In this document: piece by piece, positions 10,304-63,200 of the stretch | Position numbering within the stretch: position 1 is the first letter of the stretch | Layout of the letters: each line of letters opens with the position of its first letter | Assembly (NCBI GenBank): GCA_951812735.1 | Contig: OX638332.1 | Span: forward strand, 18,508-82,507 | Direction: 5' to 3' | Source of the DNA: Candidatus Dadabacteria bacterium | GTDB taxonomy: Bacteria; Desulfobacterota_D; UBA1144; Nemesobacterales; Nemesobacteraceae | Length of the DNA stretch: 64,000 bases | The notes under the pieces: generated by a model | Seen by the model: the letters and a program-made list of their open reading frames with translations, nothing else | The model's database searches: none | What the model was told of the DNA's origin: nothing | Made by a program: the position numbers and the translations under genes

Positions 10304-11539
10304 ATGTCCAAAAACAGTAGAATCAGGTCCCTTATCTTATTTGCAGCTACAATGTCAGCCGCTTTGTTGCTGTCCGGCTGCCAGACTCTTAATTGGAACG
10401 AAAAATGGCAAAGCAACTTTATTGATCAAATGGCTGTGGCCAGAGACAGTCAGATGCTTAAAAACCTGGTGCGCATGCGCTATGGAACACCGCCTGTATT
10501 TACAACTGTTGGAACGGTAACGGAAAAATACAAACAGGCACCGAGTCAAGTTTCATTAACCGGCGCGGTAACCAGCGTCCTTGGTTCCTCAGTAGATGAT
10601 AGCGCGAAAAGCGAAAATAACCTCTTAGGGCAGGTGGGAATAGGTGGCACCCGTGAAACTACCCTTCAATACAGTCCGCTTGTCGGCAAGGAACTGAATG
10701 AGACCATGAATCAACGTTTGGGACTGGGGACGGTATTTTATCTTACCCAGTCGGGGTTTTCGATAGAACGCGTTTTGGCAATAACGGTTGAGCGTTTTGG
10801 CCCTGCGTTAAATGCCCCGTTTGCATCCGGACCTACCCCGGATTATTTGCCAAGTCAGGAAGAATTCAACAGATACGAAGCTATACTTGCCGCATTAAAA
10901 GATTTGAGACAACAAAATAAAATAAGATTTCTCAATGCCAGCCCTGATGAGATCTGTCCCTCTCCCGAAAACAAGAAAGAAGAATCACCGAAAGAATTAA
11001 TAGCCTGCTTTTTGGATGGCGACTTCGACTGCTCGTGCGAAAACAATAATGACCCGCAATGGAAAAAGTTGACGGACCTTTTGGAGGTTGAAGATGGAAG
11101 AGGAATTTTAATACTGACCGACTCTGAAACCAGGATCAGTTCCGAAATAAAAGTGAGAACCCGTTCATTGTTCGGAATAATGCATTATCTGTCGCAGAAC
11201 GTAAAAGTACCCGATAGGGACAGGGAAATAGTCAAAATTTCAAAGATCAGCAACAGTGAAGGTTGCAGTAAAGAAGGCGAAAAGCGAGATGGTTGGGACT
11301 GCAGTCCCGCTGGACAGCGATTCGAAGTCATGTCAAGCGATACGCGACCTCAGCTGATTTGTTCAAGTCCCCGAACTGATGGAGACTGTGCTTCGGTCGT
11401 TGCCAGACATAACGGTCACTGGTTTTACATCGACGCCAAGGACCATAGCAGTAAAGCAACTTTCGCGCTGCTGACAAAGTTATTTGAGATACAAATCTCT
11501 GGCAGGGAAACGAATCAAGGCATTTTTCTTGTTCAGTAA
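10304..11539 (+). CDS. Hypothetical lipoprotein, Cys-rich in its C-terminal half. The gene is AT-rich.
   Basis: Signal peptide plus lipobox LLSGC. No recognisable catalytic motif. Codon usage and GC look unlike the neighbouring genes. Confidence 0.55.
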   Translation: MSKNSRIRSLILFAATMSAALLLSGCQTLNWNEKWQSNFIDQMAVARDSQMLKNLVRMRYGTPPVFTTVGTVTEKYKQAPSQVSLTGAVTSVLGSSVDDSAKSENNLLGQVGIGGTRETTLQYSPLVGKELNETMNQRLGLGTVFYLTQSGFSIERVLAITVERFGPALNAPFASGPTPDYLPSQEEFNRYEAILAALKDLRQQNKIRFLNASPDEICPSPENKKEESPKELIACFLDGDFDCSCENNNDPQWKKLTDLLEVEDGRGILILTDSETRISSEIKVRTRSLFGIMHYLSQNVKVPDRDREIVKISKISNSEGCSKEGEKRDGWDCSPAGQRFEVMSSDTRPQLICSSPRTDGDCASVVARHNGHWFYIDAKDHSSKATFALLTKLFEIQISGRETNQGIFLVQ

Positions 11540-11652: not shown

Positions 11653-14184
11653 TTACCAGGTGTCGTCTGGTACCTTTTCGAGGTTTGTTTTTATTACCCG
11701 AAGAAAATTCATTCCCATTATTTTCTCCACGATCCCAGCGGGATATCCTTTACCGAGAAGATACTCAGAGAGTGCGGGAAGTTCGGATATGTGCCTCATC
11801 TCCTCGGGGAAATCTTTTATGGGTGCCCCGTCCATGTCGGTTCCCACTCCCACGTGATCTTCGCCGCAGACGCTTATAATGTGGTCTATATGGGCGTATA
11901 TATCCTCCAGGGTGGCCAAACCTTCTGCCTGCCTTAGAAATTTTCCGTAGAAAACGACCCCGATCACCCCGCCTCTTTCGGAAATGGCGCGAAGCTGCTC
12001 GTCACGAAGATTTCGGGGGTGGTCCACAAGGGCTCTTGAATTCGAGTGGGTCGCGATGGGTATGAGCTCGGTGAGTTCCACGCTTTCCCAGAAACATTTT
12101 TCGTTCAGGTGGGAGAGATCAAGCGTGATGCCCAGGGCGTTCATCTGCCGTAGAAGCTCCTTTCCCTGCGAGGAGAGTCCCTTTTTGCTTTCGGGCCCGG
12201 ACGCGTAGATGTTCCTGTTGTTCCAGGAGAGTCCGACCGCCCGAACACCTCTTTTTTGGTATTCGAGAAGATGTTCCGGGTTCGATACGGGGTCCGCTCC
12301 CTCCATGAGAGTGAAAAACCCGATTTTCTCCCCTTCGCTCAGCGTGTCTATGTCCCTTCTGTGTTTTATCTGAAAGACGCTTTCTGAGTGCTCCCGGTAT
12401 ATGTCATCGTATACGTCAAGCTGGGCCATGGCCTCCGCTACTGATCCCCCGGGTTTATGCTTTGGGTGAATGAAGATGGTATTGAAAACGACCCTTGCCC
12501 CGCTCTGTTTGAGGCCGGGCAGGGTTATCATGCAGGGAACCTCGGGATTCTCAAAATCCCTTTTGTAGTGGCGTATGTGAAAGGCTATGTCCTGGTGGGC
12601 GTCGATGGTGAAAAAAGTTGTCGAGGCAGGAGTTCCCCATCCTCCTCCTCCCGGAGTCTCGATCTTCACAGCTTCTCCGGCCTTTACAGAAATAGAGCAT
12701 TTCGCGGGCAGTTTTTTCTCTTCTCCACCCGACACAAGAGTGTTCTGCCCGCTCTTTCCGTCTTTTCCTCCCCGGGCTCCCCAGGGCCGTTTCTCCCTTC
12801 TCTCGGTTATAAGGGAAACATGGGAGTCCTCAAGGAACCTGTACTGTCTTACGATTCCATCCCCGCCCGGGAACCTGCCTTCTCCTCCGGACCCCTTTCT
12901 TACGGAGTACGATTCCACCATTACGGGTAGTTCCCTCTCGATCGCCTCAACCGGGGTATTAAGCGTGTTTGTCATGTGCGTGTGCACGGCGTTTGCTCCT
13001 TTTGCGTCTGAGCGCCCTCCCATTCCGCCGGCTATGGTTTCGTAGTAGGCGTAGGAGGAGTCAGGAGGGGTATTCTCCGGAGAACCGAACGCCAGATTGC
13101 TCATTGTTCCAGCGCTTGCCGCCTGTATAGTTTCCGGGATTGCCTGTGCGAGCGCTCCGAACACCACGTCAACTACCCTCTGGGACGTCTCGACGTTCCC
13201 GCCGACAACCGCGCTTGGGTATCGGGCGTTCAGAATGGAGTCCTCATCGACTTTGATTTCAATGGGCCTGAGCGTCCCAGAGTTAAGGGGCGTGTCTTCG
13301 CCCGAGAGGCACTGAAAACAGTAAAGAACCGCGGAGGTAGTCACGCTCAGGGGAGTGTTAAGACATCCCCTGACCTTTTTAGAACTTCCCCTGAAATCCA
13401 CGGTTGCGCCGCCCCCGTCTATTTTTATTCTTACCTTTATGGGTATGTCCCTTGTTCCCGCTCCGTCGTCTTCAAGATAGTCGGAGAAGACGTAATCGCC
13501 GTCCGGTATTTTCCCTATGGCTTTTTTCATAAGCCTCTCCCCGTAGTCAAGAAGCGCTGAAGCCGCAAGGTTTATTTTCTCTAGAGAATGCTTTTCAAGA
13601 AGTTCGCGCATCCTTTTCTCCCCGGTGTCAAGCGAGGCTATCTGCGCCCGAAGGTCCCCCTCTCTTTCCTCATGATCCCTGGTTGAGAGAATTATTTCCT
13701 GTAGCAGGGTCTCACGCAGAACTCCCTCTTCACGTATCCGCGTCGGAGGTATTATAATCCCCTCTTCGTGTATCGTTGTTGAAAGCGGCATGGATCCGGG
13801 GGTGGTGCCTCCTATGTCAGCGTGGTGGGCGCGCGAGGCGAGCAGAAACTCGGGGTTGCCGTCAACGAACACTGGCGCTATGCACGTTACGTCCGGCAGA
13901 TGCGTTCCGCCGCGAAACGGATCGTTAAGAATGAAAATGTCTCCCGGGGAGAGGTTCTCCGTCGCTACCGATCTCGCGGCAAACGACATTGATCCTAGGT
14001 GTATGGGTATATGGGCAGCTTGGGCGATCATATCCCCGTCTGAGTTGAATATGGCGCAGGAGAGGTCCCTTCTTTCCTTTATGTTCGGAGAGAATCCGGC
14101 TCTTATCAGGACCGAGCCCATCTCCTCGGCGATTGTTCCGAGAAGGTTGTTGAAAATCTCGAGTTCAAAGAGTTTGAGTTCCAT
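11653..14184 (-). CDS. Fusion protein. N-terminal hydantoinase B/5-oxoprolinase B-subunit domain (HyuB, aa 1 to about 522). C-terminal M19 membrane/renal dipeptidase domain (aa about 523 to 843).
   Basis: HyuB hallmarks: FSPNIKERRDLSCAIF, HIPIHLGSM, GGGGWG. M19 hallmarks: TIDAHQD, DLSH, ATHSNSRAL, GVGTDMDG. It is a single uninterrupted ORF in the track. Confidence 0.8.
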   Translation of the reverse strand: MELKLFELEIFNNLLGTIAEEMGSVLIRAGFSPNIKERRDLSCAIFNSDGDMIAQAAHIPIHLGSMSFAARSVATENLSPGDIFILNDPFRGGTHLPDVTCIAPVFVDGNPEFLLASRAHHADIGGTTPGSMPLSTTIHEEGIIIPPTRIREEGVLRETLLQEIILSTRDHEEREGDLRAQIASLDTGEKRMRELLEKHSLEKINLAASALLDYGERLMKKAIGKIPDGDYVFSDYLEDDGAGTRDIPIKVRIKIDGGGATVDFRGSSKKVRGCLNTPLSVTTSAVLYCFQCLSGEDTPLNSGTLRPIEIKVDEDSILNARYPSAVVGGNVETSQRVVDVVFGALAQAIPETIQAASAGTMSNLAFGSPENTPPDSSYAYYETIAGGMGGRSDAKGANAVHTHMTNTLNTPVEAIERELPVMVESYSVRKGSGGEGRFPGGDGIVRQYRFLEDSHVSLITERREKRPWGARGGKDGKSGQNTLVSGGEEKKLPAKCSISVKAGEAVKIETPGGGGWGTPASTTFFTIDAHQDIAFHIRHYKRDFENPEVPCMITLPGLKQSGARVVFNTIFIHPKHKPGGSVAEAMAQLDVYDDIYREHSESVFQIKHRRDIDTLSEGEKIGFFTLMEGADPVSNPEHLLEYQKRGVRAVGLSWNNRNIYASGPESKKGLSSQGKELLRQMNALGITLDLSHLNEKCFWESVELTELIPIATHSNSRALVDHPRNLRDEQLRAISERGGVIGVVFYGKFLRQAEGLATLEDIYAHIDHIISVCGEDHVGVGTDMDGAPIKDFPEEMRHISELPALSEYLLGKGYPAGIVEKIMGMNFLRVIKTNLEKVPDDTW

Positions 14185-14261
14185 ACGGGCAAAATAATAA
14201 CCAATTTAAGGATTGCCCGTGTGAGCAGTGGGATTCGGAGTGATAGTTAATCCCGGGGGCG

Positions 14262-15131
14262 TTACGAGATCGCGCTACGGAGCGCCTCTCCCATCTCAGC
14301 CGGGCTCTTGCAGGTGGTGACTCCGGCGCGCTTAAGCGCCTGGAACTTGTCTTCGGCGCTTCCCGAACTCCCGGAAATGATGGCTCCCGCGTGACCCATT
14401 CTTTTCCCCTTGGGCGCCGTGGCTCCCGCTATGAAAGCCGCTATCGGCTTTGTGAAGCTCCGGCTTATGTACTCAGCCGCTTCTTCTTCATCCGATCCGC
14501 CGATTTCCCCTATCATTACCACCGCGTCTGTGTCAGGGTCGTTCTCAAACAGAGAAAGCGCGTCAATAAAAGTGGTTCCGATCACCGGGTCGCCTCCTAT
14601 GCCTAAGCAGGTCGATTGTCCTATGTCTAGGTTGGTAAGCTGCCAGACGGCCTCGTAGGTAAGAGTTCCGCTTCTTGAGATTATTCCCACTCTTCCGGGT
14701 TTATGAATGTACCCCGGCATTATTCCCACCTTGGCCTCTCCGGGTGTTATGACGCCCGGGCAGTTGGGTCCCACGAGCCTTGCGGGAGAACCCCTCATGT
14801 ACTCCTTTACCCTTACAACATCCAGAGTGGGTACCCCCTCGGTTATGCAGATCACAAGCTCTACGCCTGAATCAAGGGCCTCGAGCATTGAATCCATCGC
14901 GAATGCCGCAGGAACGAATACCAGGGACACGTTTGCCCCGGTTTCCCGCACCGCTTCGTCCATGGTATCGAAAACCGGGAACCCTTCGACGCTGCTTCCG
15001 CCTTTTCCGGGTGTGACGCCGCCAACGACGTTGGTTCCGTACTCACGGCACTGCGTCGCGTGGAAAAGCCCCGCGCTTCCCGTTATCCCCTGCACGAGAA
15101 CTTTAGAGTCTTTATTGACGAGAATGCTTAT
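14262..15131 (-). CDS. sucD: Succinyl-CoA ligase alpha subunit (SucD-like). The conserved N-terminus requires a start at ATA (15129-15131) or ATT; the only canonical in-frame start is GTG at 15095. No sucC is adjacent.
   Basis: ...[19 protein letters not shown]...GVTPGKGG...GHAGAII (phosphohistidine loop). An AGGGAG Shine-Dalgarno lies 10 nt upstream of the ATA codon. An in-frame TGA is 7 codons further up. Confidence 0.75.
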
Positions 15132-15454
15132 TTTTCCGGTTCTCCCTTTTGAGCTTCATTGTTTTTCAAATGAGGGGGAACTATAACATGCCTGTCCGTT
15201 TTTTCAAAGTCCTTCGCTGCGTGTTTACAAAGATAGCGAGGGATATTTTGCAGCACTGAAACATCTTTGTTTGGGAGAGCACTACGCTGCAGTCCTTGGA
15301 ACTTTATCGCCTGGTTATGGGTAGCGATTTATAAGCGGTCTCCTGTTAGAGACTTGCTAGTTCTTCTAGGACTTATCGTTTCGTATCATACTGAAATCAC
15401 TCACAAATTGTTATAATGCTGTTTATGGGCGAGCCACCGCCTATAACAGGCAGA

Positions 15455-16054
15455 ATGATACAGATATATAAAATCAGCTTTCCTGACGGATCGGCTTACG
15501 TTGGGCAGACAAGACAGCCGGTTTCCTGCCGGCTCACGCAACATCGGAGTTCAAGTCCCTGCAATTCGATTCTGCATCGAAAGCTTCTGATAATGAAGCC
15601 GACTATTGAAGTTCTCTCTCGCCACCGCAAGCAGGAAGTTGCCGACCGGGAGGAGAAGAAGTGGATCATGCGGCTTGAAAAACCGATAAACAGATACGTA
15701 GAAGGGAAGCAGATCAACGCAAATCCCAAAGCGCCGTCGCTGCGTGACAACAGGTGGCCCAAGGAAAGAAACCGGCGGGAGAGACCCAAGTACCCTCGTC
15801 GGGCCAGCGGTTACCACGTTTGTTCCTGGTGTTGGCGGAAACTTCCCGTGTCGGAGTTTTATTCGGACTGTTGCAGGTCGGTCGGTCTTTCAAGCCGGTG
15901 CAAGAGATGTGCAGAAGCCGAAAACAGGGCCCGCCGGGAAGCGATAAAAAGAAACGGAAATACCTCCGTCGCTTATTTCCGAGCGAAATTAGCGTGTCAG
16001 GCGCTGCGGACGACGAAAACCCGGCCGGTGGTCAGAGTTTTGTATGAGAAGTAA
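15455..16054 (+). CDS. Small GIY-YIG nuclease with a C-terminal Cys-rich, zinc-ribbon-like basic tail.
   Basis: IYKISFPDGSAYVGQT...R..QH...N...E...N (GIY-YIG catalytic pattern). The tail carries CSWC...CC...CKRC. The ORF-track ATG at 15416 overlaps a TATAAT at 15412-15417, so the start is placed at ATG 15455. Confidence 0.6.
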   Translation: MIQIYKISFPDGSAYVGQTRQPVSCRLTQHRSSSPCNSILHRKLLIMKPTIEVLSRHRKQEVADREEKKWIMRLEKPINRYVEGKQINANPKAPSLRDNRWPKERNRRERPKYPRRASGYHVCSWCWRKLPVSEFYSDCCRSVGLSSRCKRCAEAENRARREAIKRNGNTSVAYFRAKLACQALRTTKTRPVVRVLYEK

Positions 16055-28740: not shown

Positions 28741-29421
28741 TTGACTTGCTGGGGCTATACCGGGGCCGAAGGTCCTGATAACTGGGGATTGCTCTCGCCG
28801 GATTATGCGACCTGCGCTATCGGACGCATGCAGTCACCGATTGACATCACCGGTGCCTTTCCCGTCAAGGGACCAGCACTGAAATTTGATTACAAGCCCT
28901 CTTCTCTGAAGATTTTAAACAGCGGACATACCCTCCAGGTAAATTACGCACCCGGCAGCACACTGACTGCAGCAGGTGAAATTTACGAACTGTTGCAGTT
29001 TCATTTTCACGTTCCGAGCGAACACGCTTTTGATGGTTTGCACACGGCGATGGAGGCACATTTCGTACACAAAAATCCAGCGGGCGTACTCGTGGTGGTT
29101 GGTGTTATGATGGAAATAGGCACACAAAACCATGCTTTGGCTGCAGTATTTGACAACGTACCAACCGAGGCAGGAATAGAAGTTGGTGTTGCGGGCACGA
29201 CAGTGGATGCATCTGCGATACTGCCGACGGCGACCACCGGCTACTTCCATTACAAGGGCTCACTCACCACTCCTCCCTGCAGTGAGGGAGTACACTGGTT
29301 CATTTTTCCGGACGCAATTGAGGTGAGTGCAGAACAGGTTGCAAACTTTGAGCGGATGTTCGGACACAATGCACGTCCGTTACAAAAGCGCAACGACCGT
29401 CTGCTGATTGTATCTTCGTAG
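28741..29421 (+). CDS. Alpha-class carbonic anhydrase with no N-terminal signal peptide. TTG start.
   Basis: WGYTGAEGPDNWG, QSPIDI, QFHFHVPSEH, GSLTTPPCSEGVHW. No signal peptide is available in frame. Third-codon positions are A/T-rich relative to neighbours. Confidence 0.75.
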   Translation: MTCWGYTGAEGPDNWGLLSPDYATCAIGRMQSPIDITGAFPVKGPALKFDYKPSSLKILNSGHTLQVNYAPGSTLTAAGEIYELLQFHFHVPSEHAFDGLHTAMEAHFVHKNPAGVLVVVGVMMEIGTQNHALAAVFDNVPTEAGIEVGVAGTTVDASAILPTATTGYFHYKGSLTTPPCSEGVHWFIFPDAIEVSAEQVANFERMFGHNARPLQKRNDRLLIVSS

Positions 29422-43786: not shown

Positions 43787-44076
43787 TTTGAAGTGGCGTG
43801 CCAATGAACAGTTCGGACAAGACGAACCGCGAATCGGAGGCGCTCAGGAAGCGAATCTCCGCGCTGAGCGCGGCCATCGTGAGCAAGCTTTGCTGCTCGG
43901 GATCGGGGTATCGAATGATATCCGTCGGGGCCGAGCCGTGAGCTCTCCGATAACAGATGGTTTGATTGCAGCATATGACTGCCCTGTCAGAAGGGGGTCG
44001 GCATAACCTTGTTTTGCGGAAGAAAGAAAGAGAATCTGGTGTTTATCTTTATCGGAATATGCGGAGGCTTCCCGCT

Positions 44077-46014
44077 ATGAAACGATTCCTTGTAAGAGTC
44101 GCCCTCCTGTGTGTAGTCCTCGCATGCACCCAGGAACCGGATCCCATGATCGAGTGGCCGTATGTAGGCTCCGGGCAGGCGCACACCAAGTACTCTGTGG
44201 CCGAGGAAATCACGGCCGCCAACGTGGCCGAACTCGAAATCGTCTGGCAATGGGAGCCGAACGAGAAACCTCTCGAGAAATACGGCACGGAACCGGGGAG
44301 GTTCCAGGCAACGCCCATCATGGTCGGCAACGTCCTCTACCTTTCGACCATGTACACGCGTGTGGCGGCCCTAGACGCGGAGACGGGTGAGGAGTTGTGG
44401 ATATTTGATCCCGGGGCCTACGAGGGGGGACCGAAAGGTGCGCGGCCGACCGGCTTTGTGCATCGGGGCATCGTCCACTGGCGCGACGGGGACAGCTCGC
44501 GCATTTTCCTCAACAGCCGCGACCGGCTCTATGCGATCGATGCTGCGACCGGTGAACTGGACCCAGAATTTGGCGACAGCGGAAGCGTTTTGCTGACCGA
44601 GGACCTTGGCCGCCCGGTTACCCGCAAGGAGTTCGATCAGACCTCGCCGCCGGTGGTTTTCGAAGACCTGGTGATCGTGGGGAGTCGCGTGCCCGACCGG
44701 GTACAACGAAGGTTTGACCCTCCCGGAACCGTGCAGGCGTTTGATGTCCGCACGGGTAAGCGTCGCTGGGTTTTCTTTACTATACCGCAATCAAGTGACG
44801 ACTTCGGCGCGGACACCTGGGAAGACGAGTCGTGGCGCTATACCGGCCATGCCAACGTGTGGGGGTTTATGTCGATTGATGTCGAGCGTGGACTTCTGTA
44901 CGTGCCGGTGAGCACGCCGAGCAGCGATTTCTGGGGTGGTCGCCGGGTGGGGGCGAACCTTTTCGCTGATTCTCTGGTGTGCCTCGACGTGCGCACGGGC
45001 AAGCGGCAGTGGCACTTCCAGACAGTGCACCATGGCGTGTGGGACTACGACTTGGCCGCAGCGCCCAACCTAGTGACGATCACGGTAGACGGGCGCGAGA
45101 TTGAAGCGGTGGCGCAGGTGTCGAAGCAAGGCTTTACGTATGTGTTTGACCGCGTGACGGGCGAGCCGGTGTGGCCAATCGAGGAGCGCCCGGTGGATAC
45201 AATGACGGATGTGCCGGGCGAACAGCTTTATCCGACGCAGCCGTTTCCGACCAAGCCGCCGCCTTTAAGCGGGCAGGGGGTGTCGCTTGAAGACGCGAAC
45301 GACCTGACACCGGAGATCCACGCGCTTGCGGTGGAGGAGATGCAGAAGTTCCGACTGGGTCCCCTATATACACCGCCGAGTCTTCAGGGAACACTCCAGC
45401 GCCCGGGCGTGAGCGGCAGCGCGAACTGGGGCGGGGCGGCATTCGATCCCGAAACCGGGCTCTTGTACGTTCGGACATCGGAAAGTGCCGACACCAACCA
45501 GGTATGCGAAAATCCCGGTAACGATCCGGAGGTCGATGTTGCTTACAGCAACAATTGTCCCTATGGTGGTTCGCTCTTAGCGTTTCAGGAAGACGCTGCG
45601 GAAACCCCGGAGAGCCCGCTTGGACCGATACGGCTCATCAAGCCGCCGTATGCCTACCTAGTAGCCATAGATCTCAACGCCGGCGAGATTGAGTGGAAGG
45701 TGCCGTTTGGAGAAGGGAGCGAAGAGATCCGCAATCACCCACTGCTTCAGGGCATCGATCTGCCCGAACGACTGGGCACGCGCGGCAACTCCGGTCCGAT
45801 GGTTACCAGGGGGGGACTCGTGTTCCTCGGCGGGGGCGCGCCGTACCTGTATGCATTCGACAAGACAACGGGTGCGGAGGTGTGGCGTGGCGCAACGCCG
45901 TATAAAACGAACGCAAACCCGATGACCTACCGGACACGGTCGGGGCGGCAGTTTGTTATAATTGCGACGGGTGCCGGTCCGGACGCCGCGCTTGTTGCAT
46001 TTGCCCTGGACTGA
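44077..46014 (+). CDS. PQQ-dependent dehydrogenase (soluble quinoprotein, beta-propeller). Lipoprotein-type signal. The gene is GC-rich.
   Basis: Repeated W-containing propeller motifs. N-terminus MKRFLVRVALLCVVLAC. A GGAGG Shine-Dalgarno sits before ATG 44077. Confidence 0.75.
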   Translation: MKRFLVRVALLCVVLACTQEPDPMIEWPYVGSGQAHTKYSVAEEITAANVAELEIVWQWEPNEKPLEKYGTEPGRFQATPIMVGNVLYLSTMYTRVAALDAETGEELWIFDPGAYEGGPKGARPTGFVHRGIVHWRDGDSSRIFLNSRDRLYAIDAATGELDPEFGDSGSVLLTEDLGRPVTRKEFDQTSPPVVFEDLVIVGSRVPDRVQRRFDPPGTVQAFDVRTGKRRWVFFTIPQSSDDFGADTWEDESWRYTGHANVWGFMSIDVERGLLYVPVSTPSSDFWGGRRVGANLFADSLVCLDVRTGKRQWHFQTVHHGVWDYDLAAAPNLVTITVDGREIEAVAQVSKQGFTYVFDRVTGEPVWPIEERPVDTMTDVPGEQLYPTQPFPTKPPPLSGQGVSLEDANDLTPEIHALAVEEMQKFRLGPLYTPPSLQGTLQRPGVSGSANWGGAAFDPETGLLYVRTSESADTNQVCENPGNDPEVDVAYSNNCPYGGSLLAFQEDAAETPESPLGPIRLIKPPYAYLVAIDLNAGEIEWKVPFGEGSEEIRNHPLLQGIDLPERLGTRGNSGPMVTRGGLVFLGGGAPYLYAFDKTTGAEVWRGATPYKTNANPMTYRTRSGRQFVIIATGAGPDAALVAFALD

Positions 46015-53677: not shown

Positions 53678-53691
53678 GGTTTTTTCGGGCG

Positions 53692-53765
53692 CGTCCCCGG
53701 CAGGATTCGAACCTGCGGCCTCAGGATTAGGAATCCTGCGCTCTATCCAACTGAGCTACGGGGAC
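53692..53765 (-). tRNA. tRNA-Arg (anticodon CCU). CCA is not encoded.
   Basis: The reverse complement GTCCCCGTAGCTCAGTTGGATAGAGCGCAGGATTCCTAATCCTGAGGCCGCAGGTTCGAATCCTGCCGGGGACG folds into a cloverleaf. Anticodon loop is TTCCTAA. Confidence 0.9.
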
Positions 53766-53804
53766 ACAGAAGGAAAAATGAGTCTACCCGCTTAAGTTTC
53801 CGCT

Positions 53805-54620
53805 TCAAGGGAAGACGGGGCCAAGCTCTATCTCGAAAACCTCGGACCAGCGTTTTCCGGTGATAAAGAAGGTGTCGGAAGCAGATTTCCAGGCAATACC
53901 GTTTAACACTTCCGCTTTTTCGGGAAGGCTCAGTCTTTTTCTTAATTCCCCGAGGCTTATACGTCTTTCCACCACACCGCTCTCCGGGTTTACGACCACG
54001 ATATCGTCTGAATGCCATATGTTGCAGTAGATTTTTCCCCCTGCGTATTCAAGTTCGTTAAGCCCCCTGACCGGGGATCCTCCCTCTTTTACGCTTAAGA
54101 CTTTTGCTACCCTGAAGCTCCTGGGGGAGAGAAAATACAGTTTTTCGGTTCCATCGCTCATTATGAGGTTAGTTCCGTCGTCGGTAAGCCCCCAGCCCTC
54201 TTTGGAGTAGGTAAACGATCCCTTGCGCCCCAGGTTTTCCTTGTCGTATATGAAACCCTGTCTGGATTTCCAGGTGAGCTGGTATATGCTGTCGCCCAGT
54301 ATGGTAAGGCCTTCGCCGAAGAACTCTCGGGAGAGGCTTGTCTTAGCAATCACCTCTCCCGTGGCCGGGTTGGTTTTTCTAAGAGATGACTTTCCGTAAA
54401 GGCCAGTACTTTCATAAAGAAAACCGTCTCTGTAGACAAACCCCTGAGTGAAGGCGGTCGGGTCGTGCGGAAAAGAGTTAAGCACCTTAAAGGTGATCTG
54501 GTCGGGAGGATTCTCCTTGGTTTCCGTCGTGGAACCTGCGGAGAAGATAAGGAGAAAGAGGCAGATAAAACCTGCTATACCCGGAAGGGTATCTATTCTT
54601 TTATGGTACTGCTTCCGCAT
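53805..54620 (-). CDS. Glutaminyl-peptide cyclotransferase (bacterial/plant beta-propeller type). The start is probably Met29 of the ORF-track ORF.
   Basis: ...FTQGFVYRDGFLYESTGLYGKSSL... is the glutamine cyclotransferase signature. N-terminal TM/signal segment. Confidence 0.75.
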   Translation of the reverse strand: MRKQYHKRIDTLPGIAGFICLFLLIFSAGSTTETKENPPDQITFKVLNSFPHDPTAFTQGFVYRDGFLYESTGLYGKSSLRKTNPATGEVIAKTSLSREFFGEGLTILGDSIYQLTWKSRQGFIYDKENLGRKGSFTYSKEGWGLTDDGTNLIMSDGTEKLYFLSPRSFRVAKVLSVKEGGSPVRGLNELEYAGGKIYCNIWHSDDIVVVNPESGVVERRISLGELRKRLSLPEKAEVLNGIAWKSASDTFFITGKRWSEVFEIELGPVFP

Positions 54621-54768
54621 GGGGCTGATTCTAAGGCATAAATACCTCTTTTTGAAACCCGATAACGCTTTAAATCTTTCGCAAATTAAAAAGGAAGGCG
54701 GCATTTCTTCATGAATCCGGTTAGATAAATAGTGCTCTTAAATTTATTTAACAGGAGGAAACACCGCC

Positions 54769-55980
54769 ATGAGAGATTATACAGCGAAGAGCCCCAAAAA
54801 GGTAATTCAGATTAACCACGAGGAGCTTAGGGATCATCTAAGCTCCATAGTCACCGATACGGTAGAGGAAGTATTGAACAAGGTTCTTGACTCTGAAGCA
54901 GATGAGATGGTTGGGGCAGCGCGGTACGAGCGAAATTCGGATCGCCAGGACTATCGTTGCGGAAGCTACACAAGAAAGCTCCAGACCAAAACGGGGGAAG
55001 TTGAGCTTAAGGTACCCAAGCTTCGGGAGCAGAGATTCCAGACCGCTATAATAGAGCGGTACAGGCGAAGGGAGTCATCGGTGGAAGAAGCTCTGGTGGA
55101 GATGTACCTTGCGGGGGTATCCACGCGGCGGGTGGCGGATATTACAGAAGCACTTTGGGACACGCGGGTGAGTTCGGCCACGGTATCGAAGCTCAACTGT
55201 AGCGTGTACGAGCACATAGAGAAGTGGAGAAACAGGCCCATAGAGGGAGAGTTTCCCTATGTTTATCTTGACGGGGTGAGTCTCAAGCGCAGCTGGGGAG
55301 GAGAAGTGGGCAACGTATCGGTTCTTATAGCCATAGGGGTGGGCAGAGATGGTTATCGCAGGGTTCTGGGGGTTGTGGAGGGGGCGAAAGAGGACAAGGC
55401 CGGGTGGAGCGGGTTTCTGCGTCATCTTAATCAGAGGGGGCTTTGCGGGGTGCGGATGTTCATAAGCGACGCGTGTTTGGGGTTGGTTGAGAGCATAGGG
55501 GATTTTTACCCGGAGGCGCTTTGGCAGCGGTGCGTGGTTCACTTCTACAGAAACGTGTTCAGTCACGTGCCTCGGGGGAGAGTCAGGGAGGTGAGTCTGA
55601 TGTTAAAGGCCATACATGCTTCAGAGAGCAAGGAGGTCGCGAGGGCAAAAGCAAGGGAAGTTATAAAGAAGCTGAAAGAGATGCGACTGGGCTCGGCGGC
55701 TAAGTGGGTAGAGGAGAATATTGAACAGACTCTTGGTTACTACGGGTTTCCGTCTTCTCACTGGCGCAGGACCCGAACGAACAATCCGATGGAGAGGATC
55801 ATAAAGGAGATAAGGAGAAGATCCCGGGTGGTGGGGGCTTTCCCTGACGGGCAGAGCGCGTTGATGTTGTGTGCGGCGAGGTTAAGGCATATATCGGGGA
55901 CCAAGTGGGGAAGCAGGAGGTATCTGGACATGGATTTGCTGAGGGAAATGTACAGCAAGGAGAAAATTGAGGTAGGGTAA
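54769..55980 (+). CDS. IS256-family (mutator-type) transposase, apparently intact.
   Basis: ...YVYLDGVSLKRSWGG...VLIAIGVGRDGYRRVLG...FISDACLGL...QRCVVHFYRN... DDE motif, 403 aa. Confidence 0.9.
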   Translation: MRDYTAKSPKKVIQINHEELRDHLSSIVTDTVEEVLNKVLDSEADEMVGAARYERNSDRQDYRCGSYTRKLQTKTGEVELKVPKLREQRFQTAIIERYRRRESSVEEALVEMYLAGVSTRRVADITEALWDTRVSSATVSKLNCSVYEHIEKWRNRPIEGEFPYVYLDGVSLKRSWGGEVGNVSVLIAIGVGRDGYRRVLGVVEGAKEDKAGWSGFLRHLNQRGLCGVRMFISDACLGLVESIGDFYPEALWQRCVVHFYRNVFSHVPRGRVREVSLMLKAIHASESKEVARAKAREVIKKLKEMRLGSAAKWVEENIEQTLGYYGFPSSHWRRTRTNNPMERIIKEIRRRSRVVGAFPDGQSALMLCAARLRHISGTKWGSRRYLDMDLLREMYSKEKIEVG

Positions 55981-56193: not shown

Positions 56194-57651
56194 GTGAAGA
56201 TTAAAATACACGGGATTTTCTTAAGTTTGTTTTTTGCACTTGGTGTTAGTTTCTTATTCGGCACCGAAACGTCCGCTCATGAATACAGGGGTTATTCCCA
56301 CAGGTCGGACCTCGATGTAAGTGCGGAAAACGTCGGTATTGGAGATGTAGATTATGCGGATTCCATAGAAAAAATAACTCTTCACATAGCAGAGCACATT
56401 GCCCTGATTCAGGGGGACTCAAGCCTCAGCCGCCCGGAGCAAGCCAAAGAATTGGTGATACTGGCACAACGGACGAGGGAGCGTGGGGTCTTCAATAACG
56501 GCGAGGTCTACTTCATACTTGTAAATCCCGAGGGATATATAGTAAATCACGGGTTGTATTCCGACCTGCATTTCAGCAAGTATCTCCCTTCTTTCGAGTT
56601 TAGAGATGAGAGCGGCATGACGACCGGAACTGTGCAGACACTGCTCGACAGCGAGGGCGAGGACCCGACATGCGTAGATTACCACTATGACGGACAAGAT
56701 AGAAAGGTATGTGCAATGGGTACGGAGGTCTTCTCCGCCGGTGGCCATACAATCATTGTAATGGGTCTTCATCACGCAAAGGATGACTATGATCTAATCG
56801 AGAGAGACAATCCTAACTGCAATGACCCCCTGTTTAGCCTTCCCGTCACTGCAAAGCAGGTCAACGATGAGGAAGACCCGGAAGAGAAGGAAGAACTTCT
56901 CAAGCAATATGTAAAAGCAGTTGCCGAGAAATTCAAAGAACGTCAGGACAGGGTAGCATCGGAACTACTCGAAGATGACCCTGACCTCGTCCGTCTTGCC
57001 ACAGGACTTGTTCAGGACAGCACACCGGAACAGATACAGTCTGCGGGGGAAGAACTCGAAGAAGAATCTGTCCGGATATCTCTCAGGACAACAGGCTGTA
57101 TCGGCAAAGGAGATTACAGCGAGGGTTCTATATATCCTTTCATGCTGGAACCAGTCGAGGGCCTCGCTGTTCTAAACGGACTTGATTTTCATCTCTACGG
57201 AGTAAGCGTCTCGTTAACCGACCCTGACCCGATTCAGTGCGACGGAGCAAATATTCTGGAGGCTTTTCGCAATGTAGTGACAGATGGAAGCGGAGACCTA
57301 GCGGATTTGGCAGTGGGGAATAACGGCTTCGTTACGTATCATTGGGACCACCCCGAGCTTGAGGACAACAACGAGGGATATCTTGAAAAAGACGAAGTCC
57401 CAGGCTTCTCCATAAAGAAAAGCTATATTGAGGTGATAGACGTAACACCACCTGAGTTTTCCGCTCTTGCTCCTCCGTCTTGGCGTATCGTCGGTTCAGG
57501 AATTTATCTCGACGACGCAGAATACTGTAAAGAGGGGGACGAAGGGTGCGCAATTGCCGCAACCGCCAATACGCCTCAAAGCACTTTGCTTAACCTGTTT
57601 TTGATAGCGTCCGTCTTGTTCTCGGCTGTTTTCTTGAGAAAGCATATTTAG
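56194..57651 (+). CDS. Secreted, C-terminally membrane-anchored protein. It has a split Cache_2-like sensor fold interrupted by an acidic insertion of about 200 aa. No output domain.
   Basis: Signal peptide. GEVYFILVNPEGYIVNHG (Cache N-terminal strand motif). GFVTYHWDHP...KKSYIEVI...WRIVGSGIYLDD (Cache_2 C-terminal motif). C-terminal TM plus RKHI. AT-rich. Confidence 0.55.
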   Translation: MKIKIHGIFLSLFFALGVSFLFGTETSAHEYRGYSHRSDLDVSAENVGIGDVDYADSIEKITLHIAEHIALIQGDSSLSRPEQAKELVILAQRTRERGVFNNGEVYFILVNPEGYIVNHGLYSDLHFSKYLPSFEFRDESGMTTGTVQTLLDSEGEDPTCVDYHYDGQDRKVCAMGTEVFSAGGHTIIVMGLHHAKDDYDLIERDNPNCNDPLFSLPVTAKQVNDEEDPEEKEELLKQYVKAVAEKFKERQDRVASELLEDDPDLVRLATGLVQDSTPEQIQSAGEELEEESVRISLRTTGCIGKGDYSEGSIYPFMLEPVEGLAVLNGLDFHLYGVSVSLTDPDPIQCDGANILEAFRNVVTDGSGDLADLAVGNNGFVTYHWDHPELEDNNEGYLEKDEVPGFSIKKSYIEVIDVTPPEFSALAPPSWRIVGSGIYLDDAEYCKEGDEGCAIAATANTPQSTLLNLFLIASVLFSAVFLRKHI

Positions 57652-62510: not shown

Positions 62511-63200
62511 TCATAGTATTTCAATTTCCTCCGCATCCACGGTCTTACCTATGAGCAGTTCCCCCTTATGTACCCTGATCTTGCGTCCCTCGACTATTTC
62601 TTCACACGGAAGATTTCGTTCGTCGTCTCTTTCTATATTTGTTCCTGATGTTAGATTGACTGCTACTTCTGTTTCGCTGCCCTCAGATGATATTGTTACC
62701 TTTATGCTTCCGGTCTTTGAGGTCTCACTAAAACAGTTTTTCGAGTCTACCTGCCCCTCAAAATCTACGTTAATGTAACCATAGTTTGTGACTCCATTCT
62801 CGATGGAGATATCTTGAATGTCGACCGTCGCCCCGGGGAAAACGGGAACCCTTATCGTGCCTAGCGGAGGATTTTCATTCCCGCTCTCAAGAATTTCAAG
62901 CTCAGCTGTTGGATCGAGATTACCCTCTATGTAAAAATCGTTCCCTATAGAGGTTGTATCCTCGCAGCAAGCTACTGTTTCGTTTACTACACTTGCTCTC
63001 ACAATAAGGTTTGAATTTCTGTCTATATCTGGAATTTCCTTGATGAATCCCATAATTACTTCATTTTCTTCCACATCATCGTCATTCCCGGTTCCGCCCC
63101 CAAAATCGATATCCAGGCCACATCCTGAAACTGCGAATAAGGAAATAAAAAGGAAAAACAGGTAGATTTTCACCGCGCTTGCGCGGGTTTCGGTATGCAT
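62511..63200 (-). CDS. Hypothetical acidic lipoprotein (AT-rich).
   Basis: Signal plus lipobox FAVSGC. No recognisable domains. Confidence 0.45.
   Translation of the reverse strand: MHTETRASAVKIYLFFLFISLFAVSGCGLDIDFGGGTGNDDDVEENEVIMGFIKEIPDIDRNSNLIVRASVVNETVACCEDTTSIGNDFYIEGNLDPTAELEILESGNENPPLGTIRVPVFPGATVDIQDISIENGVTNYGYINVDFEGQVDSKNCFSETSKTGSIKVTISSEGSETEVAVNLTSGTNIERDDERNLPCEEIVEGRKIRVHKGELLIGKTVDAEEIEIL

Follow-up and report, generated by a model that had tools for sequence, protein, structure and literature searches.

The locus analysed here (positions 11653–15131) lies within a stretch of 64,000 nucleotides (nt) of contig OX638332.1 from a Candidatus Dadabacteria bacterium; the whole stretch is referred to below as the window. 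The locus contains a gene in which a HyuB-type subunit of lactam and hydantoin hydrolases is joined, in a single reading frame, to a dipeptidase of the M19 family. The best explanation of our observations, which we favor with moderate confidence, is that this gene encodes a bifunctional cytoplasmic metallo-amidohydrolase, created once by the fusion of operon neighbors, which would rely on a HyuA partner encoded in trans and combine ring opening with dipeptide cleavage. Both the domain architecture and the gene coupling are undescribed; the enzyme kinds themselves are known.

Architecture and distribution of the HyuB–M19 fusion

The fusion gene (11653..14184, minus strand) is a single uninterrupted open reading frame (ORF) of 843 amino acids (aa), with an ATG start and its stop codon at 11653–11655. 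An original prediction, made from the DNA letters alone, had described two complete domains in this frame; the ORF listing and Pfam scans agree, both domains being supported at full length, and all the motifs then quoted are found in the translation. The N-terminal HyuB domain, of the Hydantoinase_B/oxoprolinase beta type (aa 1–519; 12628..14184, minus strand), matches PF02538 over aa 6–519 (E = 4.9e-200; 665.8 bits against a cut-off of 26.8; profile positions 3–519 of 519). The C-terminal Peptidase M19 domain, an amidohydrolase TIM barrel of the renal-dipeptidase type (aa 526–843; 11656..12609, minus strand), matches PF01244 over aa 523–832 (E = 1.3e-80; 271.4 bits against a cut-off of 26; profile positions 5–318 of 319). 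The fusion protein has no match to an NCBIfam oxoprolinase equivalog, and its best NCBIfam match is caprolactamase beta (NF050157), with a score of 235.3 bits, far short of the equivalog cut-off of 1000.

Comparison with fused and split relatives placed the junction at aa 520–525 (12610..12627, minus strand), in line with the position near nt 12618 that had been proposed. The accompanying claim that the domains are joined without a linker proved incorrect: a linker of 5–6 residues is present, flanked by the conserved HyuB end ETPGGGGWG and the conserved M19 start FFT(I/V)DAH(Q/E)D. Its sequence varies, from TPASTT in the window to KTNTV, SRRAKT and APALPD among relatives. Mean identity within the linker is 60%, and its ratio of nonsynonymous to synonymous substitution rates (dN/dS) is approximately 0.2–1.3, compared with pairwise values of 0.05–0.13 for each domain. 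By this measure, the linker is evolving nearly neutrally, while both domains are under strong purifying selection.

The contiguous fusion is present in 27 species-representative genomes, labeled as metagenome-assembled genomes (MAGs) of Dadabacteria or Thermodesulfobacteriota, and a single frame was confirmed in each; many of these genomes are closed chromosomes of 1.5–2.4 Mb. An assembly chimera or an undetected frameshift that joined two genes has nothing specific in its favor beyond the default caution due to a rare architecture in metagenome-derived sequence. Such an artefact is effectively excluded by the comparative record: the 27 species genomes were assembled independently, in several projects that include long-read closed chromosomes, the frame is kept across a variable linker that joins two halves under strong purifying selection, and no internal methionine is available at which translation of the M19 half could restart.

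A large protein database yielded 37 clusters with both Pfam domains at 74–99% identity, several of them named Candidatus Dadabacteria and some lying on contigs of up to 2.4 Mb; one of them, P0001, is 99% identical. In an exhaustive HMMER pass over 1.84 billion protein representatives clustered at 50% identity, exactly one (P0024) matched end to end, and the other top matches were HyuB alone or HyuA–HyuB fusions. The fused sequences form one exclusive clade both in a neighbor-joining tree of the HyuB parts and in a separately built tree of the M19 parts. The architecture is therefore not common; as sampled, it is confined to one Dadabacteria lineage. With a single cluster among the 1.84 billion representatives, and no paper pairing Hydantoinase_B with M19 (nor any on Dadabacteria together with hydantoinase) in the literature searched, the earlier suggestion that it is undescribed holds. 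The clade apparently consists of sponge-associated Dadabacteria, an assignment suggested by a sponge MAG survey that lists 22 Dadabacteria MAGs (PMC8163846) and by the MAG names RHO1, CAR2, PNGco and Langseth, and thus drawn partly from a reading of isolate names. Longer fusion ORFs occur in L020 (923 aa, with C-terminal read-through) and L023 (868 aa), and the 547-aa protein P0039 (82% identical), with the HyuB domain only, may have arisen by secondary splitting or may reflect a truncated gene call.

By alignment to the caprolactamase subunit CapB (6yra_B), we assigned D40, H95, D98 and H120 as the putative metal tetrad of the HyuB domain, which was also aligned to the 1288-aa N-methylhydantoinase 7hk5; the ligands in CapB are Asp41/His99/Asp102/His124 (PMC8453981). 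The zinc ligands of the M19 domain are H530, D532, E628, H692 and H713, accompanied by R724 and D783, and those of human renal dipeptidase are His20/Asp22/Glu125/His198/His219 (PMC9305348). The numbering of the human DPEP1 sequence used for this mapping was checked at the published positions. In an alignment of 28 fused sequences, comprising the window and the 27 species-representative genomes, the HyuB tetrad and the five M19 zinc ligands are each invariant (28/28). At the D785 column, one of the 28 sequences has Arg for the second Asp of GTDMDG.

The solved structures nearest to the M19 half are of the Listeria Lmo2462 type (3neh and 3lu2, E = 1e-40). As in these enzymes, the equivalent of renal dipeptidase His152 is missing, the region being deleted (LSWNN). 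His152 of the human enzyme is one of three histidines reported as essential. On three essential histidines, PMC9305348 refers to Keynan 1997, and His20 and His198 are the only ones that it names. Because the same deletion occurs in the Listeria Lmo2462-type enzymes, the loss is best read as a subfamily trait and no sign of inactivity. Both domains appear to be catalytically competent. At the N-terminus, neither a signal peptide nor a membrane segment is evident. At the level of the predicted protein, the product is thus shown to be a cytoplasmic polypeptide with two intact metal-hydrolase sites. AlphaFold2, run on a 44-sequence alignment, folded both domains (predicted local distance difference test score, pLDDT, of 83) without fixing their orientation (predicted template modeling score, pTM, of 0.62).

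Unfused relatives and the sucD neighbor

The next relatives of the fusion (60–66% identity), which are free-living, are unfused and carry hyuB and M19 as separate neighboring genes. Locus L002, which branches as sister to the fused clade in the tree of HyuB parts, has the order yicC–sucD–hyuB (521 aa)–M19 (316 aa), with a gap of 80 bp between the last two. Elsewhere, hyuB and M19 are separated by 3 bp (L006/L039) or about 0.1 kb (L037), or overlap in different frames (L040). The commonest split arrangement is hyuB–memo–M19. Pfam confirmed the Memo domain (PF01875) at L003 11581–12804 and L005 11566–12807, where the product of 407–413 aa has an N-terminal extension of about 110 residues and the gene overlaps the hyuB stop by 4 bp; at nine loci (L033–L036, L038, L041, L044, L045 and L048), memo was deduced from an insert of about 1.25 kb between hyuB and M19. 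Such overlapping or near-abutting genes suggest translational coupling.

In the simplest history, hyuB–memo–M19 would be the ancestral order. Loss of memo in some lineages would then have left hyuB directly beside M19, adjacent or overlapping, and loss of the hyuB stop codon together with a short spacer would have produced one ORF with a linker of 5–6 residues. From an overlap such as that in L040, a one-base indel is enough for fusion. As one component of our best explanation, and sharing its moderate confidence, we propose a single fusion event, which took place in the ancestor of one Dadabacteria clade and joined genes that were already operon neighbors.

Upstream of the fusion gene lies sucD (14262..15131, minus strand), which encodes the 289-aa alpha subunit of succinate-CoA ligase. 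Its product, earlier described as SucD-like, is a true SucD by equivalog match (NF004230; 458.3 bits, cut-off 336), and the distance given earlier, 77 bp, is exact. A consensus pattern scan, which is suggestive only, gave no terminator-like or promoter-like minus-strand site in the spacer from the sucD stop to the fusion start (14185..14261, minus strand). Upstream of sucD, the scan returned a sigma-70-like promoter candidate (15180..15207, minus strand; TTGAAA-16-TATAGT, 10/12 matches, with a TG extension), a pattern match only, which could drive a transcript spanning sucD and the fusion gene. The two genes are probably co-transcribed in the clade of the window. In 27/27 fused-clade genomes, sucD is found on the upstream side of the fusion, directly in most and about 0.7–1.3 kb away in L030, L032 and L050. 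The reported absence of sucC was upheld by Pfam scans, which covered essentially all window ORFs of at least 150 aa for HyuA and SucC domains and found no sucC/ATP-grasp_2 gene; an E. coli SucC probe also gave no match, but this probe is unvalidated and the Pfam scans are the firmer evidence.

The short same-strand gap, the promoter-like site, the constant position of sucD in the fused clade and the absence of sucC nearby would all fit a three-part module of sucD, hyuB and M19, in which SucD would replace HyuA by supplying phosphoryl or CoA chemistry. The comparative data, however, have already largely refuted this idea, and we consider it very improbable. Besides scoring as a true SucD, the protein is conserved like a housekeeping product across the phylum (74–98%). 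Its adjacency to hyuB is broken in L003 and L005, where an opposite-strand epimerase gene and another ORF intervene, and sucD is absent from the hyuB locus in L006/L039, L042 and L047. Furthermore, the proteobacterial HyuAB–M19 operons described below carry no sucD, and the SucD alpha subunit is known to have no nucleotide-binding site of its own. In all relatives with gene tables that were read, sucD comes after yicC, so that its separation from sucC seems to characterize the phylum rather than the HyuB–M19 module. We therefore judge sucD to be a syntenic bystander, and of the new module originally suggested we retain the two fused halves, in one pathway, and leave out sucD.

The start of sucD drew our attention separately. 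At 15129–15131 (minus strand), the window has ATA, 9 nt downstream of a strong Shine–Dalgarno sequence (AAGGGAGA), and no canonical start codon is present at the conserved N-terminus. When this position was compared in L008–L032, L046 and L050, ATA was found in the window and 23 fused-clade genomes, whereas ATC and ATG each occur in a single lineage; the split-gene relatives have ATG (13/13). This looks like non-AUG initiation of a tricarboxylic acid cycle gene, conserved in the fused clade. Between yicC and sucD lies an ORF of 212 aa (15416–16054, plus strand) that gave no Pfam match and carries CxxC pairs and, at its N-terminus, a GIY-YIG-like motif (IYKISFPDGSAYVGQT). Many fused-clade genomes keep this ORF at the same spot (69–88% identity), in some cases with an apparent frameshift; neither the split-gene relatives nor L001 gave a match.

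The HyuA partner, the pathway and its substrate

In the characterized systems, ATP binding and substrate activation take place on HyuA/CapA, from which the intermediate travels through a tunnel to the metal site of HyuB/CapB for hydrolysis; caprolactam ring opening is thermodynamically unfavorable without ATP (PMC8453981). The original prediction that the window holds no HyuA was supported both by the Pfam scans and by tblastn searches with six diverse HyuA probes (E <= 1e-3). The latter also covered 52 Dadabacteria-type loci, for a total of 53 Dadabacteria sources and 781 kb reaching 6–10 kb around hyuB, and returned no HyuA; the same probes detected 8/8 HyuA-containing control loci. HyuA is thereby shown, at locus level, to be unlinked from hyuB throughout the sampled Dadabacteria, and at this level the earlier description of an orphan HyuB stands. 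All sampled outgroup HyuBs (the nearest at 49–50% identity), in contrast, have HyuA adjacent or fused. The P0121 HyuB (49% identity) overlaps a 734-aa hyuA gene, hyuA and hyuB overlap in Thermomicrobium roseum, and P0123, P0125 and P0126 are HyuA–HyuB fusions.

This difference between 53/53 Dadabacteria sources and all sampled outgroups could mean that Dadabacteria lost HyuA, and that their HyuB is ATP-independent or has an unrelated activating partner, working directly with M19 and, ancestrally, with Memo. The small genomes (1.5–2.4 Mb) with conserved synteny, and the coupling of hyuB to Memo and M19 instead of HyuA, including the 4-bp hyuB/memo overlap, are consistent with such a stand-alone enzyme. 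However, the Dadabacteria HyuB retains about 50% identity to HyuA-dependent relatives, keeps the four metal ligands and gives no indication of accelerated change, and lactam hydrolysis in this family is reported to be thermodynamically unfavorable without ATP (PMC8453981). Its N-terminus, the end that bears HyuA in natural fusions, is moreover free, so that docking of HyuA in trans would be possible. We consider a stand-alone HyuB unlikely. A bolder version, which we regard as quite doubtful, is that Dadabacteria have no HyuA at all, that a stand-alone HyuB is hard-wired to M19, and that the fusion, together with the proteobacterial operons, marks a route for cyclic or lactam dipeptides such as diketopiperazines and pyroglutamyl dipeptides. 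Diketopiperazines and pyroglutamyl dipeptides are abundant in sponges. The enzymology of cyclic dipeptide degradation is reported to be poorly known (PMC3852281).

Using the fusion protein as a tblastn query against 72,556 plasmids, we found a HyuB-like gene in 1,159 records, with M19 directly downstream in 1. In this one record, plasmid AP022309.1 of Burkholderia sp. SFA1, a one-strand operon (L062 309–12311) comprises the five genes of a peptide-type ATP-binding cassette (ABC) importer of the SBP_bac_5 family, a gene for a 1,295-aa HyuA–HyuB fusion, an M19 gene that starts 18 bp after it, and a gene for an aspartase-family lyase. A Bordetella-like contig (L063 1–8984) has an importer/HyuAB/M19 operon in which M19 overlaps HyuAB by 8 nt, and in Sphingopyxis sp. 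USTB-05 (L064 8001–17041), M19 and HyuAB lie on the same strand about 5.5 kb apart, with a TonB-dependent receptor between them. The proteobacterial M19s have Gly at the position of the zinc ligand Asp22 (4/4 sequences checked). We read these importer/HyuAB/M19 operons, which are uncharacterized, as the outcome of an independent event in which the two families were recruited together. Judged by gene content, the proteobacterial pathway involves HyuA as well as import of a peptide-like compound.

Three lines of genomic evidence speak strongly for a shared pathway of the HyuB and M19 halves: the adjacency of the two genes in unfused relatives, the single-origin fusion under purifying selection, and the independent proteobacterial operons, which strengthen the inference. 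In the mechanism that we favor, a HyuA-type ASKHA ATPase, encoded in trans by an unlinked gene, would activate a cyclic amide by phosphorylation. The Asp/His/Asp/His metal site of the HyuB domain would hydrolyze the activated lactam-type ring, and the binuclear zinc site of the M19 domain would cleave a dipeptide bond in the HyuB product or in a co-product. The outcome would be the conversion of a ring-containing, peptide-like nutrient into free amino acids. As the substrate, a lactam-bearing or cyclic dipeptide would be the most economical class, for example a pyroglutamyl dipeptide or a diketopiperazine.

The original prediction had instead pointed to glutathione or oxoproline salvage. Here, ChaC or GGT/GGCT would generate 5-oxoproline and Cys-Gly, on which HyuB (with HyuA) and M19 would act in parallel, as 5-oxoprolinase and Cys-Gly dipeptidase, respectively. 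This idea is chemically coherent and possible. The nearest HyuB relatives outside Dadabacteria include HyuA–HyuB fusions of about 1200–1290 aa, which is the architecture of eukaryotic 5-oxoprolinase; the mammalian M19 enzyme is the classical Cys-Gly-cleaving one, and ChaC enzymes make 5-oxoproline and Cys-Gly. In addition, the SBP_bac_5 family, to which the importers of the proteobacterial operons belong, includes the E. coli glutathione importer. No positive evidence for glutathione salvage emerged, however, and we rate it as a minor possibility. Neither the window ORFs of at least 150 aa nor the sampled neighborhoods contain a GGT, ChaC/GGCT or glutathione synthesis gene. The locus has only the HyuB half of the 5-oxoprolinase (OPLAH/OplAB) architecture and no HyuA half, the best NCBIfam match is to caprolactamase beta and not to an oxoprolinase equivalog (235 against a cut-off of 1000 bits), and the M19 half is of the short Lmo2462 type without a His152 equivalent. 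The aspartase-type lyase that closes the Burkholderia operon is likewise unfit for Glu, Cys and Gly as products.

We rank the lactam or cyclic dipeptide reading somewhat above glutathione salvage for two reasons. An importer, a ring opener and a dipeptidase would be self-sufficient for such a substrate, whereas glutathione requires an additional gamma-glutamyl enzyme, none of which was seen near the genes; and the aspartase-type enzyme at the end of the Burkholderia operon does not suit glutathione products. As a further candidate, suggested by reported links between sponge symbionts and creatine use, we considered degradation of creatinine or N-methylhydantoin. We rejected it as unsupported: the gene context includes neither creatininase nor carbamoylsarcosine amidase, and in a MAG survey this pathway was not enriched in sponge symbionts (PMC8163846).

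Several observations weigh against the bifunctional enzyme proposed here, or limit what can be claimed for it. The HyuA partner in trans is assumed and not seen, the window and the 52 other Dadabacteria loci (781 kb, controls positive) having given none. Coupling of hyuB and M19 is strong but not universal: two or three Dadabacteria genomes carry hyuB without a nearby M19, among them L042 and L047, where recQ and an SLT transglycosylase gene flank hyuB, and among the HyuB-bearing plasmids the adjacency is found in only 1/1159. The proteobacterial M19s belong to another subfamily, with 29% identity to the M19 of the window. No transporter or regulator lies near the fusion gene to hint at a substrate, and sequential and parallel action of the two sites are not separable from sequence. 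Finally, with a pTM of 0.62, the model supports neither a fixed arrangement of the two domains nor a channel, and for this reason we make no claim of substrate channeling, nor of M19 occupying the HyuA-binding face. In L042 and L047, an ORF of about 620 aa divergent from hyuB was suspected to be HyuA and turned out to be RecQ.

The fusion acts as a natural "Rosetta stone", indicating that a HyuB-type lactam/hydantoin hydrolase subunit works in one pathway with an M19 dipeptidase; operons of cultivable Burkholderia, Bordetella and Sphingopyxis echo this link. Dadabacteria also emerge as a phylum whose hyuB, in the loci sampled, never lies beside the gene for its supposedly obligatory ATPase partner. 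The identity of the substrate could fill a gap in the bacterial mineralization of stable cyclic amides or cyclic dipeptides, and might explain a trait that marks a sponge-associated Dadabacteria lineage. The finding would gain weight if closed Dadabacteria genomes lack HyuA, or if HyuAB–M19 is a cyclic-dipeptide catabolic route; should the enzyme serve ordinary 5-oxoproline and dipeptide housekeeping with HyuA elsewhere, it would amount to a modest annotation improvement.

Other features of the window and relation to known systems

The window is a piece of ordinary bacterial chromosome, with an rRNA operon, gyrB, secDF, tgt, dapB, pheS, hisS and nuo genes among its contents. It also encodes an alpha-class (eukaryotic-type) carbonic anhydrase (28741–29421, plus strand) and a 682-aa dehydrogenase dependent on pyrroloquinoline quinone (PQQ; 43966–46014, plus strand). 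The region 53691–55980 holds tRNA-Arg(CCT), a glutaminyl cyclase gene (Glu_cyclase_2; 53805–54704, minus strand) and a Mutator-family transposase gene (54769–55980, plus strand). Glutaminyl cyclase forms pyroglutamyl N-termini, which is thematically near 5-oxoproline chemistry; its gene and the fusion lie 40 kb apart. ORFs without a Pfam match are found at 10304–11539 (plus strand, 411 aa), 56194–57651 (plus strand, 485 aa) and 62511–63200 (minus strand, 229 aa). The 411-aa ORF has a lipoprotein-like N-terminus (…LLLSGCQT) and is convergent with the fusion gene, ending 114 nt from its stop codon.

Among known systems, the HyuA/HyuB lactamases and hydantoinases (CapAB, PDB: 6YRA; N-methylhydantoinase; OplAB) share with the fusion a full-length HyuB/CapB subunit, the four Asp/His/Asp/His ligands and the C-terminal GGGGWG. 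Unlike CapAB-type enzymes, the fusion locus has no adjacent or fused HyuA, and the C-terminal domain of about 50 residues present in CapB is missing, its position being taken by the M19 dipeptidase. The fused HyuA–HyuB proteins with the OPLAH architecture (about 1200–1290 aa; P0123 and P0125; PDB: 7HK5/9H03) are the closest relatives of the HyuB half outside Dadabacteria (49–50% identity; 285 bits to 7hk5). There, HyuA sits on the N-terminus of HyuB; here, a second hydrolase sits on its C-terminus, and the ATPase is absent from the locus.

The M19 half shares a full TIM barrel, the five zinc ligands and the equivalents of Arg230 and Asp288 with bacterial cytoplasmic M19 enzymes (Listeria Lmo2462, PDB: 3LU2/3NEH; Streptomyces Sco3058, PDB: 3ID7) and with human DPEP1. 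It differs from them in not being free-standing and in having no signal peptide or membrane anchor, and the equivalent of His152 is missing, as in Lmo2462. The non-hydrolytic M19 proteins of the PvdM type have the same fold, and PvdM is without four of the five zinc ligands (PMC9305348); as all five are present in the fusion, its M19 half is not of this inactive type. The proteobacterial importer/HyuAB/M19 operons differ from the fusion in that HyuA is fused to HyuB, the M19 is a separate protein of another subfamily, and a dedicated importer is present. Despite these differences, they couple the same two families, with M19 immediately downstream of the HyuB-containing gene.

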